A stretch of 64,000 bases of DNA from contig BDTG01000043.1 in the NCBI GenBank assembly GCA_002897695.1, forward strand, positions 7,934-71,933. The letters are read 5' to 3'. The position numbers were made by a program, and so were the translations under genes. The notes under the pieces are model-generated. The model was not told the origin of the DNA. It was given only the letters and a program-made list of their open reading frames with translations, and searched no databases. The stretch is from a bacterium BMS3Abin14 (GTDB taxonomy: Bacteria > BMS3Abin14). Of this stretch, positions 5,948 to 40,597 are shown piece after piece (positions within the stretch are counted from its first letter, which is position 1; each line of letters opens with the position of its first letter).

Positions 5948-6994
5948 ATGACCGCCAGAGTGGGCATAATCGGGGCAACGGGTTATACGGGGATGGAGCT
6001 CATCCGGATTCTGCTGCGTCACCCCGAGGCGGACCTGACATACGCCTCGTCCAGAAGGTGGGCCGGAAAGCATCTTTTCGAGGCATTTCCAGCCTTGTCC
6101 GGACAGACGGACCTGAGGTTCAGGGCCTTGGATCCGGCCGAGGCAGCCCTGGAATCGGACCTGGTTTTCGTTTGCCTTCCCCACGGGGGGGCCATGGATA
6201 CCTCAGCTGCCCTGATGGAAAAAGGGGTTCGAACCATCGACCTGAGCGCCGACTTCAGGTTGCGGGAACGGGAGGTCTACGAGGAGTGGTATGGTCCCCA
6301 CAGTCAGGCCCAACTGCTTTCGGCCGCCGTAAACGGCTTCCCCGAGCTTTTCCGGGGGGAAATATGTGACGCTTTACTTGTGGCCAACCCGGGGTGTTAT
6401 CCGACCAGCATAATCCTGGGGTTGGTCCCGCTTGTGGAAAAGGGTCTTCTGAAGACGAATTCTATTATTGCAGACTGCAAGTCCGGTGTAAGCGGAGCCG
6501 GAAGGGAACCTAAGGATAATCTCCATTTTCCAGAGGTGGAGGGCAACTTCTCGGCCTATGGAATTGCCGGCGTGCACAGGCACACTCCCGAGATTGACCA
6601 GGAACTGACCAGGGTAGGGGGGATGGAAGTCAAGGTGACCTTTTCCCCGCATTTGCTTCCGGTCAGCAGGGGGATATTCTCGACAATCTATGCCGAACCA
6701 GCTGATTCCCTTGATGAGGAAGCCGTCTGTGATCTGTACAGGGAACGATACGGGGATGAGCCGTTCGTACGGATCCGTGAGAATCAGGAACCGCTTCCGA
6801 CCTTGAAGGAGGTTCGCGGAACCAACATGTGCATCATCGCCCCCAGGATAGATCGGAGAAACGGAAAGGTGATAATTATATCCTGTCTGGATAATCTTGT
6901 GAAAGGGGCCTCCGGACAGGCTGTACAGAACATGAATGTCATGCTGGGCCTTCCCGAGACCCTCGGGCTGCTGGATCTGCCCCTTATTCCGTAG
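5948..6994 (+). CDS. argC: N-acetyl-gamma-glutamyl-phosphate reductase
   Basis: 348 aa; N-terminal GATGYTG NAD-binding motif; ArgC family. Confidence 0.95.
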   Translation: MTARVGIIGATGYTGMELIRILLRHPEADLTYASSRRWAGKHLFEAFPALSGQTDLRFRALDPAEAALESDLVFVCLPHGGAMDTSAALMEKGVRTIDLSADFRLREREVYEEWYGPHSQAQLLSAAVNGFPELFRGEICDALLVANPGCYPTSIILGLVPLVEKGLLKTNSIIADCKSGVSGAGREPKDNLHFPEVEGNFSAYGIAGVHRHTPEIDQELTRVGGMEVKVTFSPHLLPVSRGIFSTIYAEPADSLDEEAVCDLYRERYGDEPFVRIRENQEPLPTLKEVRGTNMCIIAPRIDRRNGKVIIISCLDNLVKGASGQAVQNMNVMLGLPETLGLLDLPLIP

Positions 6995-7266
6995 GAGAAA
7001 GTTCAAGGCCCGGAGTCCAGGGTCCAACGGTTACTACAGATCCTTTCGTTTTACAGGGCCGAAAAAATCCATTCATGGTTTTTTTCTTCACCACAACCCC
7101 ACGCGGTGCCGGGTAATTAACAAAAAGTCCAATTATATCGAAAGGTTACGGCTTAACATCCAGCCTGTTTTTCTTGACACCCCATCGGTCGCGTGTTAAC
7201 TCTTAATCGAGATATGGGCAATGGGCAATAAAAGCAAGTTTGGCGTTCGAATTTCAAGGTTGTTTC

Positions 7267-7296
7267 CACTCTGGACTCTGGACTCTGGACTCTCCC
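7267..7296 (-). repeat. (GTCCAGA)3 tandem heptamer repeat, antisense orientation
   Basis: ccactctggactctggactctggactctcc on + strand; followed by a 9-bp GC stem-loop at 7292-7330. Confidence 0.7.
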
Positions 7297-7352
7297 GGCC
7301 TGAGCTTGCCGAAGGGCCGGCGGCCGGGAGTTGAACCGGTAAAGGGGATCAA

Positions 7353-10016
7353 ATGCCTGGGTTGAAGATCCTTGTCATTGAGGATGACCAGTTTTTTCAG
7401 CAATATGTCAACGACCTCCTGCAGGATTTTAACGTTGACCTTATTAACGCCATGGATGGCGAGGAAGGGCTTCTCCTTGCCCAATCGGAGAAGCCTGACC
7501 TGATCCTTACCGACATTGAAATTCCTAAAATCCAGGGATTTGTCCTGTTGAACCAGTTAAAGGAGATGCCTCAGACAGCCGATATTCCCGTGGTCCTCAT
7601 GTCCGGGAAGGTGGAAAAGGACCTTCTTGACAAGCATTCACGGCTGAGCGTTCACGCCGAAGGGTACCTCCTGAAGCCTTTTTCCCGGGCTGAGCTCCAC
7701 GGAGAAATCACCAGAGTCATGGGGCCGGATGCCCTGACGGCGGACGGAGTTTCCGGTGATGCTTCCGCAGAAGAATCACTGCCCGTGGCGCCTGCCCCCG
7801 TCTTGCCCCCCACCGCTGAAGGGGCCGGGATTAAGAAACGATCCAGGCCGCTGGTCCTTGTGGTTGATGATTCCTCCTATGTTTTAATCCAGACAAGCGA
7901 TCTCTTAAAGGAAGCCGGGTTGGATGTCGATGTTGCCATGGATGGGGATGCAGGCCTTGCCAAATGCATGGAGATCAGGCCGGACATCGTTCTCCTGGAT
8001 GTGCAGATGCCTTCAAGCAACGGTTTCATCGTCTGTGAGACGCTTAAGAAAAACCCGGACACGAGAACAATTCCAGTAATTCTCATGTCGGCAGTGGTTG
8101 ATACTGATTCATTTGAACGGCATTCCAGGCTGAAATACCATGCCGACGCCTATCTGCAGAAGCCCTTTAAGAGGGCCGAACTGCTGGATCTGATTTTCGG
8201 GCACCTTGCGATGGATCCATCGTCGGACGGAGTGCAGAGCAGGACCGGTTTTCTTTTTCAGGATGAAAACAGATTGCCGGTGGAACAGTCGGAAAGGGAA
8301 ACCCGGTTGGCTGTCAGGCTCGCCGAAATTGAAGGCAAACTTAATGAGGCGGCTGAATTGCTGGAATCGCACCGATCCCGGGAGGAGGCTTTCCAAAAGG
8401 AGATCGATAATCTTCGGAAGGATAATGATCAGTTTGCCGAGGAACGGAAAGAAGAACTTCGCCAATGGGAGGATCGTAGAAGACGGCTTGTTGAAAAAGT
8501 CACAATTGCTTCCAGACGTGCAGAAGAGGCAGTCGGGGAAGCCGAGGAGATCAGGAACAATGGCCTGAAGCTGAAAATGGACATGGAAGCAGCCCTTATG
8601 GCCAAGGCCGAAATAGAGGAACAGGCCAAATCTGTAGTTGAGGGCATGAAGAATAGTCTGGGCGGCGCCGAATCGGATGATGGCCTTGCTCGTCTCGGCA
8701 AGGAGAATATTGAGCTGCGGAGCCGTCTGGCTGAGGCAGGGGCCGGAGCAGCAAGCCTGGTGCGGCTGCAGTCCGATCTGGACCGGGCCAGGGAGGAAAA
8801 CCGTGAGCTCAGGGAGTCCATGTCTTCCATGCCGGACCGCTCGGGCTTGAATGAGGAAATAAAAAACCTCCAGGAGCAACTGAAAGCTGCCAACGCCGGG
8901 ACCACCGCCGGCAACGAGGAGAAACTTGGACTTCAATCCACCATCGATTCACTGCATGCCGAGAAGGGGAAAGCTCGGGAAGAGGAAAAAAAGGCAGCTG
9001 AAAAAATGGCCGAGGCCCTCGATGATTTTAACCGGATCCGGGTGGAGGCTGAGAATTTAAGAGCACAACTGGCCGAGGCTCAGCAATTGGCCCTTCAGAC
9101 GGAGACACTGGAGAAAGAGCTGGATTCCCTGAGAACGACGGCAGGGGAAGCCAAGGGGTTGCGGGACCTCAATGGAAAATTGCGTGCTGAACTGGAAGGG
9201 CTAAAGCAATCCTGCGCGGCCCTTTCCGAAAGCCTGGAGCACGAACGCGAGAAAATGTCCATTGCTCAGAAAGAGGCCGAATTTGCCCGAAAGGAGTTGG
9301 AAGGTGCGCAGGAGGAAAGAAAACGTTCTGCCGGGCTGAAAAGGGATCTTGAGGAGAAGACGAACAGGTTGGAGACATTGCAGGCTCAAAGCCGGATACT
9401 GGAAAAGGAAAATCATCTTTTGCAGGAGCGCCTCCAGGCCGGAATTCAATCGGGCGGCGTTTCGCTTCAGGCGGGGCAGGCCAACCCTCAGGAGGAACTC
9501 CTTTCCAGCCGGTTAAGCCAGTTGGAGCAGGTCCTGAGGCGAACCGTAGGTGATGCCCAAGCTGTTCTCATGGATCAACAGGGTAAGGAGAAGGGGCTTG
9601 AGGAGAAGATAAACACCCTTGTGAATACCCTTGAGGCTGAACGGAAAGAGCATGGAAAAGAAAGGGAGGAATGGCGTTCCCGTGAAGTCGACCTCAAAAA
9701 TAGCATGGAGGAATTTTTTGATGAGCGCAGCAGACGGATGGGGGAGGAATTGTCACGGCTTTACCCCATTCCCGTCGCAAGGGCGCAGCGCCCCCTTGAG
9801 GTAGTTCGTCCGGGCCGCCGATTTGGATCTTTTGCCCTCATTGGCCTGCTTTTGCTGATAGCCATTCTCCTGGGCTACCTGGTGATCTCACGATTACCGG
9901 AGAAAAAACTCCCCGCCGGCCAGGGGAGGCTTCAGGGACAGACTATGATATTACCACATGGCCCAGGGCGGCCCGACCCCGGCCAGGGCATAATACAGCA
10001 ACCCGTCAATTGTTGA
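7353..10016 (+). CDS. Tandem response-regulator receiver (REC-REC) protein with ~550-aa coiled coil and C-terminal transmembrane anchor
   Basis: Two CheY-like domains each with a phospho-acceptor Asp (LILTDIEIP; IVLLDVQMP) and K (LLKPF / LQKPF). Residues ~295-830 are heptad-rich, E/K/R/L/A-rich. C-terminal hydrophobic FGSFALIGLLLLIAILLGYLVI. Confidence 0.85.
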   Translation: MPGLKILVIEDDQFFQQYVNDLLQDFNVDLINAMDGEEGLLLAQSEKPDLILTDIEIPKIQGFVLLNQLKEMPQTADIPVVLMSGKVEKDLLDKHSRLSVHAEGYLLKPFSRAELHGEITRVMGPDALTADGVSGDASAEESLPVAPAPVLPPTAEGAGIKKRSRPLVLVVDDSSYVLIQTSDLLKEAGLDVDVAMDGDAGLAKCMEIRPDIVLLDVQMPSSNGFIVCETLKKNPDTRTIPVILMSAVVDTDSFERHSRLKYHADAYLQKPFKRAELLDLIFGHLAMDPSSDGVQSRTGFLFQDENRLPVEQSERETRLAVRLAEIEGKLNEAAELLESHRSREEAFQKEIDNLRKDNDQFAEERKEELRQWEDRRRRLVEKVTIASRRAEEAVGEAEEIRNNGLKLKMDMEAALMAKAEIEEQAKSVVEGMKNSLGGAESDDGLARLGKENIELRSRLAEAGAGAASLVRLQSDLDRAREENRELRESMSSMPDRSGLNEEIKNLQEQLKAANAGTTAGNEEKLGLQSTIDSLHAEKGKAREEEKKAAEKMAEALDDFNRIRVEAENLRAQLAEAQQLALQTETLEKELDSLRTTAGEAKGLRDLNGKLRAELEGLKQSCAALSESLEHEREKMSIAQKEAEFARKELEGAQEERKRSAGLKRDLEEKTNRLETLQAQSRILEKENHLLQERLQAGIQSGGVSLQAGQANPQEELLSSRLSQLEQVLRRTVGDAQAVLMDQQGKEKGLEEKINTLVNTLEAERKEHGKEREEWRSREVDLKNSMEEFFDERSRRMGEELSRLYPIPVARAQRPLEVVRPGRRFGSFALIGLLLLIAILLGYLVISRLPEKKLPAGQGRLQGQTMILPHGPGRPDPGQGIIQQPVNC

Positions 10017-37810: not shown

Positions 37811-39118
37811 ATGGGAGCTTTCAGAAAGAATGGTTGTGGATATTTTCCGCTTTTTTTGACGGTCTTGGGTTGTCTGGTGGTTCTTGCATCCATGGTTCCT
37901 GTCGCCTGGGCAGCTGAATATTCCCTTTCTTCCAGATCCTATCTCTATCTCCACGAACGTGATAACGCAATCGGTCCCAATGACCATCTGGCTCCCCTTT
38001 ACGAGTACCTGTCCCTTGACGTATGGGACCTCAAGGAGGCTAATCTATCGTTCCATTCGTACGGATGGGGGAGGGTCGATCTCGCGGATGCATCAGCAGG
38101 CGGAAGGAACAGCGGCGACATTTCCAGCGCCTACCTCCAATACCGGTATCCCACCGGAAACGGCCAGGCGAAACTGGGCAGGTTCTTCCTGGCCGAGGGT
38201 ACTACCACCGAAACCCTGGACGGCCTTTTTCTGAAGGGCACAGGGAAAGGGGGCTTCGGCGCGTCATTCTACGCCGGGAACCCGGTGGAGAACTCAATTA
38301 TAGCTTCGGGGGGAGGGAACTCCCTCGTGGGGGGAAGGGTCTTTTACGTCCGTCCCGGTCTTGCCGAAGCCGGTTTTGGCTACCTCTTCGAGAATGGGGA
38401 TTTTCAGGGTAAAAACCGGGAGGAAGCAGGCGGCGATCTCTGGGTGCGTTTCGCGCCTTCATGGGATCTCACCGGTAAGATTGTTTACAACCTGACCACC
38501 AGCGAACTTGCCTCTCATCGGGTAGCGTTCCGCCTGGTCCCCGTCAACACTATTGACCTTGAACTGGGCACTGAAGGTTACCGCTACGATGGTCTGTTTC
38601 AAAAATCCCTTCATCCGGCGTTTCTGCCGCCGTCCGCAAATGGCAGCGACAAGGTCCGAAAACTGTTCGCGGACTGTGACTGGCAGGCCACTGAGAGACT
38701 GTCCGTTCAGGCCGGCGTCAAAAGAATCCACCACGACGCCGATGATCCGGGTGACGCTGCCTACGGAGAGCTTGGCTTTCGCCTTCAGATGGAAGGGGTC
38801 CTGAACCTGCTCGGTTTTTCGGCAGCCCTTCAGACTGCCGATCTGTCGGAGAACGAATATCGGGAATTAAGAGGATGGCTCATGGGAACCGTCAGGAAGT
38901 GGAGTTTTTCCCTCGATGCCCTGACCTATCTCTACGAGGTGCCCGTCAACGGAGTGGATACCTCCACCCAGATTGTAGGCTCTGCCGGTTGGAAGGCCAG
39001 TACCCTTCTTTCTCTTTCCGGCGACGTGAGATACACCCGGAGCCCCCGGTATGCCAAGGATCTGACCATACTGCTCAGGGCGGACTTTGCCCTGGACGGA
39101 TCATGGGGAGGGAAGTAA
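37811..39118 (+). CDS. Secreted Gly-rich protein, putative outer-membrane beta-barrel (porin-like), adjacent to multihaem cytochromes
   Basis: Signal peptide …LASMVPVAWA/AEY; alternating amphipathic beta-strand-like segments; Gly-rich stretches. ATG 37811 preferred over the listed 37757. Confidence 0.5.
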   Translation: MGAFRKNGCGYFPLFLTVLGCLVVLASMVPVAWAAEYSLSSRSYLYLHERDNAIGPNDHLAPLYEYLSLDVWDLKEANLSFHSYGWGRVDLADASAGGRNSGDISSAYLQYRYPTGNGQAKLGRFFLAEGTTTETLDGLFLKGTGKGGFGASFYAGNPVENSIIASGGGNSLVGGRVFYVRPGLAEAGFGYLFENGDFQGKNREEAGGDLWVRFAPSWDLTGKIVYNLTTSELASHRVAFRLVPVNTIDLELGTEGYRYDGLFQKSLHPAFLPPSANGSDKVRKLFADCDWQATERLSVQAGVKRIHHDADDPGDAAYGELGFRLQMEGVLNLLGFSAALQTADLSENEYRELRGWLMGTVRKWSFSLDALTYLYEVPVNGVDTSTQIVGSAGWKASTLLSLSGDVRYTRSPRYAKDLTILLRADFALDGSWGGK

Positions 39119-39120
39119 TT

Positions 39121-39585
39121 ATGAGGTACGTGAGGGGATTTCTGCTTTTTGTGCCGGTGCTGCTTCTCCTGACCGCCTGCTCCGGGTTATCCACAAGAGA
39201 GTCGGTACCGCTCCGCCACCCGGAGGAGCTTGAGCAGGGCAGGGTCAACTGTCTCGAATGTCACGAAGACGAAACGTCCGGAGCCCTTAAACCCTACGGC
39301 TCTTTCCCGCACACGGCGGTTTTTCTCAAGGAACACGGATCTTACGCCTCTCAGACCCAGAACCTCTGTTCCACCTGTCACTCACCCTCCTGGTGTCAGA
39401 CGTGTCATGCCGTCCGTGAGGAACTCAAGCCTGGAATCAAGTACGGCAATCGTCCTGATCTGGGCCTGCCCCATCGGGGAGATTTCATAATACAGCACCA
39501 GAAGGAAGGGAGGATCGACCCGGGATCGTGTCTGACTTGTCACGGCAACCGGAACAACCGGGTATGCGGCAGGTGCCATCATTGA
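39121..39585 (+). CDS. Pentahaem c-type cytochrome lipoprotein
   Basis: Lipobox LLTAC; five CxxCH motifs (CLECH, CSTCH, CQTCH, CLTCH, CGRCH) in 154 aa. Confidence 0.8.
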   Translation: MRYVRGFLLFVPVLLLLTACSGLSTRESVPLRHPEELEQGRVNCLECHEDETSGALKPYGSFPHTAVFLKEHGSYASQTQNLCSTCHSPSWCQTCHAVREELKPGIKYGNRPDLGLPHRGDFIIQHQKEGRIDPGSCLTCHGNRNNRVCGRCHH

Positions 39586-39609
39586 TGACTTCGTGAAAAG
39601 TCATCAATG
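39580..39609 (+). repeat. 12-bp-stem hairpin CATTGATGACTT…AAGTCATCAATG (family-2 related) overlapping the cytochrome stop codon
   Basis: Seen directly; related AAAAGTCATCAAT core also at 10014-10043. Confidence 0.6.
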
Positions 39610-39771
39610 CGCCCACTTGGGGGCCTCAAATCGAAGATTTGTGAGGAGAGCGGAAATGACACTTTTCGCTTTCCGTGGAGTAAAAGGTAACGGATGCACT
39701 TTTTACGACTCTAATAATATATACAGAGCCCGCGAACCAGGGAAACTGTCTGTGATATTCCGGAGGTTGAG

Positions 39772-40431
39772 ATGAAAACAGGGATAAACAGGATAAAAAG
39801 GGAACGGGGAATTGCCGCGGGCCTTTCATCGCCCTGGATACCCGGTGTCTGGGCCCACCCCCTCACCCACACGGATCCGGTAGTATCCCACGGCCAGTTC
39901 AAGGGCACCCCTGACGAGACTGTTTGCATCAACTGCCATGATGTCAACAACCAGTTCGGCAACATGCCCACGCCGTTCTGTCACAACTGCCATGGAAGTT
40001 CCCATAGCGTTCCCTCTCTGGACCACAACCAGGTTGCGCCGCTGCAGGTGGATTTCGATGGGAACTGTTCCGGTTGCCACAGTATCGACGGTTCTGCCCA
40101 GTCATTCGCCCCCGCGTGTACCACCTGCCACAAGGGGGGAAGCCCCTACATCTACACTAACTGCAGGTCCTGCCACGGAAAACCCCCCGACGGCGGAGCC
40201 CCCGTATACAGTAATTTCCCCAATCTGCAGGGGAAGCATGACAAACACAAAAGCGTCGCCACCTGTTCCGACTGCCACAGCGGCGGCGGATCGGGCGCGG
40301 GTCTCAACCACGGTTATGACAACATTGTGAACCTCCAGGCGCCTTCTGGAATCACCTTTTCTCCGGGGAGCGGCAACGTAACCTGTGCCGGTACGTGCCA
40401 CGAGAATCACAACAACCGACAATGGTACTGA
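39772..40431 (+). CDS. Multihaem c-type cytochrome (6 CxxCH plus one CxxxCH)
   Basis: CINCH, CHNCH, CSGCH, CTTCH, CRSCH, CSDCH and CAGTCH; weakly hydrophobic N-terminal region. Confidence 0.75.
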   Translation: MKTGINRIKRERGIAAGLSSPWIPGVWAHPLTHTDPVVSHGQFKGTPDETVCINCHDVNNQFGNMPTPFCHNCHGSSHSVPSLDHNQVAPLQVDFDGNCSGCHSIDGSAQSFAPACTTCHKGGSPYIYTNCRSCHGKPPDGGAPVYSNFPNLQGKHDKHKSVATCSDCHSGGGSGAGLNHGYDNIVNLQAPSGITFSPGSGNVTCAGTCHENHNNRQWY

Positions 40432-40520: not shown

Positions 40521-40597
40521 TGGTGCCCCCGGCAGGACTCGAACCTGCGGCCCCAGGATTAGGAATCCTGTGCTCTATCCTGCTGAGCTACGAGGGC
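40521..40597 (-). tRNA. tRNA-Arg (anticodon CCT), CCA encoded
   Basis: Reverse complement folds as a cloverleaf: acceptor GCCCTCG/CGGGGGC, D-stem GCTC/GAGC, anticodon stem CAGGA/TCCTG with loop TTCCTAA, T-arm GCAGG-TTCGAGT-CCTGC, discriminator A and CCA. Confidence 0.85.

Follow-up and report, generated by a model that had tools for sequence, protein, structure and literature searches.

The three-gene module at positions 37811-40431 of the window (the whole 64,000-nt stretch of DNA analysed, from a genome of the candidate phylum BMS3Abin14) probably encodes a distant porin-cytochrome conduit of the ExtE/ExtF type, in which gene A would provide an outer-membrane barrel, gene B a haem wire and gene C a variable cytochrome; we put the probability of this reading at about 0.7. 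By homology, the A-B pair is most probably a divergent member of the known, structurally uncharacterised ExtE/ExtF conduit family. The module would be new as a family member in candidate phylum BMS3Abin14, and not as a kind of conduit. A preliminary description of this DNA had proposed a "divergent or novel conduit"; the divergence is borne out by a barrel identity of about 30%, whereas the novelty gives way to probable membership of the ExtE/ExtF family.

The three open reading frames lie where they had been placed before, all on the + strand, with gene A at 37811..39118, gene B at 39121..39585 and gene C at 39772..40431. The module is bounded, as also described, by glycyl-tRNA synthetase genes (glyQ/glyS) upstream and by a tRNA-Arg(CCT) gene (40521-40597, - strand) downstream of gene C, and its wider neighbours are housekeeping or sugar-nucleotide genes. 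Open reading frames with at least two CxxCH motifs are confined, within the 64-kb window, to the cytochromes of the module, which indicates that the clustering of haem motifs is not due to chance; no other multihaem cytochrome was found in the window.

The assignment of A and B to ExtE and ExtF of Geobacter sulfurreducens runs via Geobacter intermediates and a published table. Gene A aligns over its full length with the barrels of Geobacter argillaceus and Geobacter sp. OR-1 at 29-31% identity (E = 2e-41 to 2e-57), and gene B with their adjacent cytochromes at 47-49% identity (E = 3e-45 to 3e-48). For the G. argillaceus pair (scaffold00034.34, equated with our locus L074 by scaffold name and gene order), the identities are 30.6% to A and 48.7% to B. 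Supplementary file 3 of Jiménez Otero et al. 2018 (PMC6148476) enters the G. argillaceus and OR-1 barrels as homologues of ExtE, to which they are 44.8% and 45.3% identical, and their partner cytochromes as homologues of ExtF, with identities of 54% and 58.6%. Searches of Pfam and NCBIfam yielded no match for A and only sub-threshold matches for B, and sequence searches against solved structures, using the A profile, B or full-length C, returned nothing significant. The Geobacter ExtE-like and ExtF-like proteins, too, stay below every curated cut-off in Pfam/NCBIfam; thus, the silence of these databases on A and B reflects missing models and the negatives are uninformative. The lack of a Pfam or NCBIfam model for either family also explains the "hypothetical protein" annotations.

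Gene A (GBE15744.1, BMS3Abin14_01819) encodes a 435-aa ExtE-like protein, which starts with MGAFRKNG...VLASMVPVAWA/AEYS and has a predicted signal peptide cleaved at AWA/AE. The glycine richness, the cleavage site and the missing terminal aromatic residue noted in the preliminary description all held: 12.2% of the residues are glycines, and the chain ends in ...SWGGK. The structure model that had been suggested for this protein came out as a barrel of 22 β-strands with an empty, open pore and no plug domain, in keeping with the ~21-strand outer-membrane barrel encoded first in ExtE-type clusters. Some homologues bear a C-terminal OmpA peptidoglycan-binding domain, which places the C-terminus in the periplasm and supports an outer-membrane location. 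A search against the MtrB family, also suggested beforehand, left PF11854 (MtrB_PioB) unmatched at E <= 1.

Gene B (GBE15745.1) starts 2 nt past the stop codon of A and encodes a 154-aa ExtF/ExtC-like lipoprotein, with the lipobox LLTA-C20 and a serine at position +2. The earlier count of five CxxCH motifs was confirmed (residues 44, 83, 92, 137 and 149), and five histidines outside the motifs (H33, H64, H72, H118 and H126) are conserved as well, which fits five bis-histidine electron-transfer haems. A pentahaem lipoprotein next to the barrel is the arrangement of ExtE/ExtF. ExtC and ExtF share 49% identity, and B is therefore assigned by sequence to a joint ExtC/ExtF family. The AF2 model of B is of low confidence (pLDDT 65, pTM 0.39).

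A gap of 186 nt separates B from C. A hairpin at 39580..39609 (+ strand), with a perfect 12-bp stem and a 6-nt loop, spans the stop codon of B and has no U tract; a 76-nt stretch that includes it folds at -25.9 kcal/mol (z = -2.0). The hairpin may serve as an mRNA stabiliser or as an attenuator of read-through from B to C. An RNA element in the gap was considered and rejected, as an Rfam scan of the gap found no family, no intrinsic terminator of the canonical kind was called, and the hairpin stands alone.

In its assembled form, gene C (GBE15746.1) encodes 219 aa, the remnant of a multihaem lipoprotein of 373 aa. The six CxxCH motifs and the one CxxxCH motif (CAGTCH at residue 205) that had been read from it are all present. 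Alignment with four homologues of 368-373 aa (P0331, P0121, P0332 and P0333) showed that its intact relatives are lipoproteins with nine CxxCH, one CX3CH and one CX9CH. Compared to these, the assembled C has lost its signal peptide and lipobox together with three CxxCH and the CX9CH, so that four haem sites are gone. The N-terminal segment RVLAGAGIAFLLIASGVLFAC/S of P0331 and P0121 is missing, no in-frame start codon lies further upstream, and none of the other frames of the 186-nt gap conceals an N-terminus. What the preliminary description took for a weak signal peptide is actually the junction of an in-frame deletion, and the assembled protein has neither a Sec signal nor a lipobox; as written, it could not mature as a c-type cytochrome.

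The junction lies at 39841..39849 (+ strand), in the single retained copy of a 9-bp direct repeat, CCCGGTGTC. Intact relatives have two copies of CCCGGTGTC, and one copy together with 453 bases (in total 462 bp, or 154 codons) is missing here. BLASTN of three related assemblies (L091, L092 and L093) against the window gave two aligned blocks that overlap at 39841-39849, with flanks 99.94-100% identical. These alignments identify the 219-aa C as a deletion derivative of the 373-aa lipoprotein. An earlier candidate explanation, a mosaic or chimeric C, was suggested by 24 mismatches that cluster just past the junction in a comparison with locus L006; it was rejected because L006 is a different allele, and the three assemblies match the window on both sides of the junction.

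There is a nearly even chance that C is intact in the organism and that the 219-aa frame is an assembly artefact or a minor variant, in which case all three parts of the module would be exported. The same three assemblies, one of which (L091) is a 145.7-kb contig with a coverage of 25.7, encode the full 373-aa lipoprotein between nearly identical flanks, and the 219-aa form is present in the BMS3Abin14 record only. However, a repeat of only 9 bp would not by itself make a de Bruijn assembly collapse, so that reads spanning the junction probably exist; an exactly in-frame deletion flanked by microhomology is typical of real slippage deletions; and relatives such as L007 and L078 manage without a third gene. 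Until the reads have been checked, it would be unsafe to treat gene C of this public MAG as coding for a functional cytochrome.

The architecture of the module is conserved across a large family. At E <= 0.001, the ExtE/ExtF pair family has 697 cluster representatives across Deferrimicrobiaceae and Geobacteraceae, and the closest homologues of the module are found in Deferrimicrobia, which are predicted iron reducers; the module is not described in the Deferrimicrobium genome paper. The pentahaem gene directly follows the barrel gene in all 77 informative loci, i.e. those with room for it, and a third multihaem gene comes next in 69 of 70, an order that holds in both families. Over its N-terminal domain, full-length C shares 30-38% identity with the third gene at other loci. 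The number of haem motifs in this third gene ranges between about 4 and 24, whereas A and B are constant, and two loci (L007 and L078) consist of two genes with no third.

Comparison with characterised conduits upheld the Pcc/Ext-like layout of a barrel with lipoprotein multihaem cytochromes that had been proposed for this module. The closest counterpart is ExtEFG of G. sulfurreducens (GSU2726-2724; PMC6148476), which has the barrel gene first and the pentahaem lipoprotein gene right after it, as in A-B; ExtE is predicted to have 21 transmembrane segments (PMC6148476). There are differences as well. ExtG is a periplasmic dodecahaem cytochrome and has no counterpart in the present cluster, whereas the third gene in the intact relatives of C encodes a lipoprotein; most relatives, including G. 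argillaceus, OR-1 and Geomonas, have such a third-gene lipoprotein with unusual CX3-9CH sites. ExtG is, however, a weak defining feature: within Geobacter as well the third component shows poor conservation, and PMC6148476 found no ExtG homologue that satisfied its criteria. The present host is a member of candidate phylum BMS3Abin14 and not of Desulfuromonadales, and even against the Geobacter intermediates barrel A reaches an identity of only about 30%. ExtB-ExtC-ExtD of the ExtABCD cluster (GSU2645-2642) likewise combines a barrel with two lipoproteins, one with five haems and a larger multihaem one, and PMC6148476 notes that extBCD is contiguous in some genomes that have no extA in the vicinity; nevertheless, the Geobacter matches of A are listed under ExtE, not ExtB.

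Two further conduits were compared. MtrCAB of Shewanella (PDB 6R2Q) has a 26-strand barrel, compared to 22 strands in A, where PF11854 finds no match, and a soluble decahaem MtrA in place of the candidate inserted five-haem lipoprotein B. OmbB-OmaB-OmcB (Pcc) of Geobacter resembles the module in its ~20-strand porin-like protein of similar size and its multihaem cytochromes, which include an outer-membrane lipoprotein, but its cluster has a soluble periplasmic octahaem OmaB. Moreover, G. argillaceus and OR-1 have separate OmbB/OmaB homologues at other loci, which makes A-B-C a different cluster family from Pcc. No periplasmic non-lipoprotein cytochrome is encoded beside the present module, unlike ExtG, ExtA, MtrA and OmaB in their systems.

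The analysis shows the homology, the predicted barrel fold, the motifs, the synteny and the deletion; from these features we infer how the proteins would assemble into a complex, their topology, what they do and which way the electrons flow. Protein A would sit in the outer membrane as an empty 22-strand barrel, and B, as a mature lipoprotein of ~135 residues with five putative bis-histidine haems, would form with it the invariant core of the conduit. B would lie inside the lumen of A as a haem wire across the membrane, like MtrA in MtrB and in line with the porin-cytochrome model of Richardson et al. 2012, an arrangement to which the empty lumen and the strict A-B pairing lend indirect support. 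Intact C would be a surface-exposed acceptor or donor module, and the conduit would carry electrons between carriers in the periplasm, whose genes lie elsewhere, and minerals or partners outside the cell.

A tentative extension of this scheme, which we consider rather unlikely, holds that A and B alone are a minimal two-protein wire across the outer membrane, to which the C-type cytochrome would be a swappable and dispensable outer adaptor, and which in some lineages would be OmpA-anchored to peptidoglycan. If so, B would occupy the lumen of the 22-strand barrel in much the same way as the plug domain does in FhuA, and both the deletion in C and the two-gene loci would be functional states rather than defects.

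As for direction, the same machine could run in reverse, taking in electrons from Fe(II) or reduced minerals, from a cathode-like surface or from a partner cell, like PioAB/MtoAB. Candidate phylum BMS3Abin14 has been recovered from sub-seafloor sulphide and hydrothermal settings and is reported with rTCA carbon fixation, and its discussion as an rTCA autotroph suggests that the flow may be inward; bis-histidine haem wires are reversible and sequence sets no direction. Against this, ExtEFG of G. sulfurreducens is linked to Fe(III)/Mn(IV) oxide reduction by genetics alone, and the Deferrimicrobia with the closest homologues are predicted to reduce iron, which makes inward flow the less likely direction.

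It is improbable that the module makes no contact with solids and that the barrel is a solute channel, with the cytochromes reducing a soluble or colloidal substrate such as selenite, tellurite or polysulfide at the outer membrane. The modelled barrel is indeed an open pore, and a title cited in PMC10553843 implicates ExtI, another Ext-cluster barrel, in selenite/tellurite reduction. Yet the five haems of B all appear to have bis-histidine ligation, with no site left open for catalysis, a 22-strand barrel without a plug would leave the outer membrane leaky, and the pairing in 77 of 77 loci argues for a complex and not a free channel. The missing database matches and the lack of sequence relatives among solved structures might suggest a new kind of conduit with no kinship to any characterised family. 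Provided that scaffold00034.34 and L074 were equated correctly, this is very hard to credit, since the homology to the published homologues of ExtE and ExtF is clear and spans the full length, and the Geobacter proteins likewise fail to reach curated cut-offs.

Altogether, the ExtE/ExtF-type reading places an Ext-type conduit in candidate phylum BMS3Abin14 (Candidatus Hudomiota), whose sulphide-deposit and hydrothermal habitats make electron exchange with minerals ecologically plausible. The ExtE/ExtF pair is a large and widely spread family with no Pfam or NCBIfam model of its own, and a model built on the invariant core of barrel and pentahaem lipoprotein would sharpen metagenome surveys of extracellular electron transfer.

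The module comprises three genes on the plus strand. Gene A (37811-39118) encodes a 435-residue protein (12.2% Gly) whose N-terminus is of Sec type, up to AWA/AE, and whose last residues are ...SWGGK. Gene B (39121-39585), which starts 2 nt after the stop codon of A, encodes a 154-residue lipoprotein (lipobox LLTA-C20) containing five CxxCH motifs. Gene C (39772-40431), separated from B by a gap of 186 nt, encodes 219 residues with six CxxCH motifs plus CAGTCH. All three ORFs were reproduced at the positions assigned in the preliminary description, and correspond to GBE15744.1 to GBE15746.1 of the 'bacterium BMS3Abin14' record, each labelled hypothetical protein. The module is preceded by mgtE, recO, glyQ and glyS, and followed by tRNA-Arg(CCT) (40521-40597, minus strand), a UDP-glucose/GDP-mannose dehydrogenase family gene, an epimerase gene and genes for a PAS histidine kinase and a sigma-54 response regulator. 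A scan of the whole 64-kb window found no other ORF with at least two CxxCH motifs. The stop codon of B is spanned by a perfect inverted repeat (39580-39609; 12-bp stem, 6-nt loop, no U tract), and a 76-nt stretch at this repeat has a folding energy of -25.9 kcal/mol (z = -2.0). The hairpin might let the third gene be expressed independently of A and B.

Pfam and NCBIfam scans of A gave zero matches, and solved structures searched by sequence with the A profile, B and full-length C gave no significant match. Homologue search returned 231 proteins, mostly 45-50% identical to A, from Deferrimicrobiaceae or 'Deltaproteobacteria' MAGs. A is predicted to form a 22-strand barrel with an open lumen, and not a soluble, non-barrel protein, which upholds its original reading as a barrel. 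The absence of a terminal aromatic residue is a family trait (consensus C-terminus ...TGGKK) and no counter-argument. Since the predicted strand number is even, both termini should be periplasmic, in agreement with the OmpA peptidoglycan-binding domain at the C-terminus of some homologues. Such fused barrels, 640-710 aa in total, have a long Ala/Pro-rich linker followed by a C-terminal OmpA domain (PF00691), and occur in relatives' loci L004 (6001-8100), L005 (1871-3970), L027, L028, L032, L040, L042 and L057. Their domain composition implies a conduit that would be anchored to the cell wall; we know of no description of such a tether for Ext, Mtr or Pcc barrels. Alignment of Deferrimicrobiaceae-type and Geobacter-type barrels revealed the invariant residues H82, R124, D137, R176, D209 and D369, which are candidate lumen contacts.

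A profile scan with A, using one genome per species, returned 80 loci. Alongside close Deferrimicrobiaceae relatives, the matches include full-length Geobacteraceae proteins of 26-31% identity, among them those of the cultured Geobacter argillaceus, Geobacter sp. OR-1, Geomonas silvestris and Geomonas limicola. At all Geobacteraceae loci a gene for a 157-158-aa pentahaem lipoprotein comes after the barrel gene, and one for a large lipoprotein cytochrome comes next. The gene order on G. argillaceus scaffold00034.34 (locus L074) agrees with the published pair, namely the ExtE homologue Ga0052872_03681 (44.8% identity) and the ExtF homologue Ga0052872_03680 (54%, and 43% to ExtC); the OR-1 pair Ga0098289_10179 and Ga0098289_10180 is 45.3% and 58.6% identical to ExtE and ExtF, respectively (Jiménez Otero et al. 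2018, PMC6148476, supplementary file 3). The OR-1 locus L082 lies on the first contig, at ~100 kb. In BLASTP alignments, A shares 30.6% identity over 451 aa with the G. argillaceus ExtE homologue (E = 2e-57), 29% with the Geomonas silvestris barrel (E = 3e-48) and 29% with the OR-1 ExtE homologue (E = 2e-41), and B shares 47-49% with ExtF homologues (E = 3e-45 to 3e-48). The tie of A and B to G. sulfurreducens ExtE/ExtF proper runs through the published homologue table, and not through direct alignment. As ExtF and ExtC are 49% identical (PMC6148476), B is placed in a joint ExtC/ExtF family. Geobacter ExtE- and ExtF-like proteins do not reach the curated Pfam/NCBIfam cut-offs either, which explains why the window's proteins resembled orphans. 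The full HMMER profile search gave 697 cluster representatives at E <= 0.001 (165 at E <= 1e-30), and the family is therefore large.

Of the 80 loci, 77 have room for a gene after the barrel gene, and all 77 carry a homologue of B there; in most loci the start and stop codons of the two genes abut or overlap. An additional multihaem ORF comes next in 69 of 70 loci, with a CxxCH count ranging from ~4 to 24. Loci L007 and L078 lack it and consist of barrel and pentahaem lipoprotein only; the L007 module (6736-8465) resides in a complete 2.16-Mb genome (CP070682.1), which suggests that the two-gene core may stand alone. As the third gene is variable or missing and B is always paired with the barrel, A and B constitute an invariant core to which an exchangeable third cytochrome is added, consistent with the report that variation of extracellular components far exceeds that of the rest (PMC6148476). 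The B family has invariant lipid-anchor cysteine, five CxxCH motifs and non-motif histidines H64, H72, H118 and H126, with H33 nearly invariant. These could supply five distal ligands for five haems, suggesting bis-His electron-transfer haems and no open catalytic site. The predicted structure of B was too poor for use.

Gene C as written is a deletion derivative. Its closest relative is P0121 (371 aa, locus L006), and its 90%-identity cluster contains forms of 368-373 aa, the 219-aa form being exclusive to the BMS3Abin14 record; P0331 (HDL53402.1, 373 aa) is identical to C throughout the overlap. Both window flanks are 99.94-100% identical at the DNA level in three assemblies: L091 (ENA ERZ1742237 NODE_13, 145.7 kb, coverage 25.7), L092 (GCA_011040875.1) and L093 (Logan SRR7786992). 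In each, the alignment to the window falls into two blocks that share window positions 39841-39849; the window is thus 462 bp (154 codons) short, the missing stretch lying between a pair of 9-bp direct repeats (CCCGGTGTC). Lost with it are a lipoprotein signal peptide (...LLIASGVLFAC/S), three CxxCH motifs and one motif of the CX9CH type (CASSSYNGQSCH), and the missing N-terminal domain is the part 30-38% identical to the third gene of Deferrimicrobiaceae and Geobacter loci. The string formerly taken for a weak signal peptide (…IAAGLSSPWIPGVWA/HP) is the deletion junction. C-type haem is attached on the periplasmic side, so C as written, which is not exportable, could not receive haem. A real microhomology-mediated event in this population and an assembly error are about equally likely origins of the deletion. 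A mosaic origin of C, considered from its pattern against L006, was dropped, as L091 shows L006 to be merely a different allele. The CX3CH site of C is probably a genuine haem site, since close relatives conserve it as C[AN]G[TLS]CH.

Non-standard candidate haem sites occur at conserved positions across the third-gene family (P0331 residues 101-112 and 359-364; L001 7858-9246; L003 7795-8388). The same position holds CX9CH in some members (CASSSYNGQSCH, CFSNTLNGVACH) and CX4CH in others (CFLAECH), and a C-terminal CX3CH or CX5CH also occurs (CAGTCH, CFNGTLCH). Geobacter third-gene proteins score just under the cut-off of the TIGR01904 CxxxxCH/CxxCH domain.

Divergently transcribed DsbC/thioredoxin-like genes precede Deferrimicrobiaceae-type modules (L001 71-5781, L003 3656-5773, L004 3922-5603, L005 664-1473), joined in L001 and L003 by DsbD_TM (CcdA-like) and thioredoxin genes; they could serve haem attachment as a thiol-redox set dedicated to it. 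The window has no such genes, and its module is preceded by glyQS instead. In one MAG (L009 2204-6497), the genes directly upstream encode an NrfC-like 4Fe-4S protein, a membrane protein resembling NrfD and three glycine-cleavage H family matches; this set could feed the conduit from quinol at the inner membrane, although its H-protein paralogues are unusual. Upstream of the G. argillaceus ExtE-like barrel gene (L074 223-1995) is a further multihaem cytochrome (scanned ORF of 590 aa, 9 CxxCH) with no counterpart in the window, which may be the 'additional lipoprotein decahaem cytochrome upstream of extE' footnoted for one cluster (PMC6148476). The tRNA-Arg CCT differs between the window (40529-40550) and L006 (2392-2468) by six substitutions clustered in the T-arm and acceptor stem, within an otherwise identical 3.4 kb; the T-arm changes are compensatory, positions 5-68 form G-U in the window and A-U in L006, and the L091 tRNA is identical to the window's. 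The first 171 nt of the L006 contig (ENA ERZ1742235 NODE_1668) include low-complexity sequence and an adapter from Illumina sequencing (AATGATACGGCGACCACCGAGATCTACACTCTTTCCCTACACGACGCTCTTCCGATCT), and this end is therefore an artefact.

We infer a complex of A with B, whose small pentahaem fold would fill the otherwise open 22-strand lumen. Left unplugged, so wide a barrel would make a hole in the outer membrane. The plug domain of FhuA has ~160 residues, which we take to be comparable in size to mature B with its five haems. An intact C would lie outside the cell to contact minerals, electrodes or partner cells, and periplasmic carriers encoded elsewhere would feed the wire. Electron uptake rather than export is a live alternative, in line with the rTCA cycle reported for the host phylum; against it, Geobacter ExtEFG is genetically linked to Fe(III) and Mn(IV) oxide reduction, and Deferrimicrobia are predicted iron reducers. 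Whichever way electrons flow, the module would share its working principle with MtrCAB and Pcc, and its layout resembles ExtBCD; A falls outside the MtrB/PioB sequence family, and by sequence and gene order the module probably belongs with ExtE/ExtF. Its third part is a lipoprotein, as in most Geobacteraceae relatives seen, in contrast to the periplasmic ExtG of the G. sulfurreducens prototype. Rather than a conduit of a categorically new kind, as had been considered, the module, judged from these comparisons, adds a new and divergent member to a known kind, from an unusual phylum. Its value lies chiefly in caution on one MAG gene, in ecology, and in the annotation of a large family that lacks a model.
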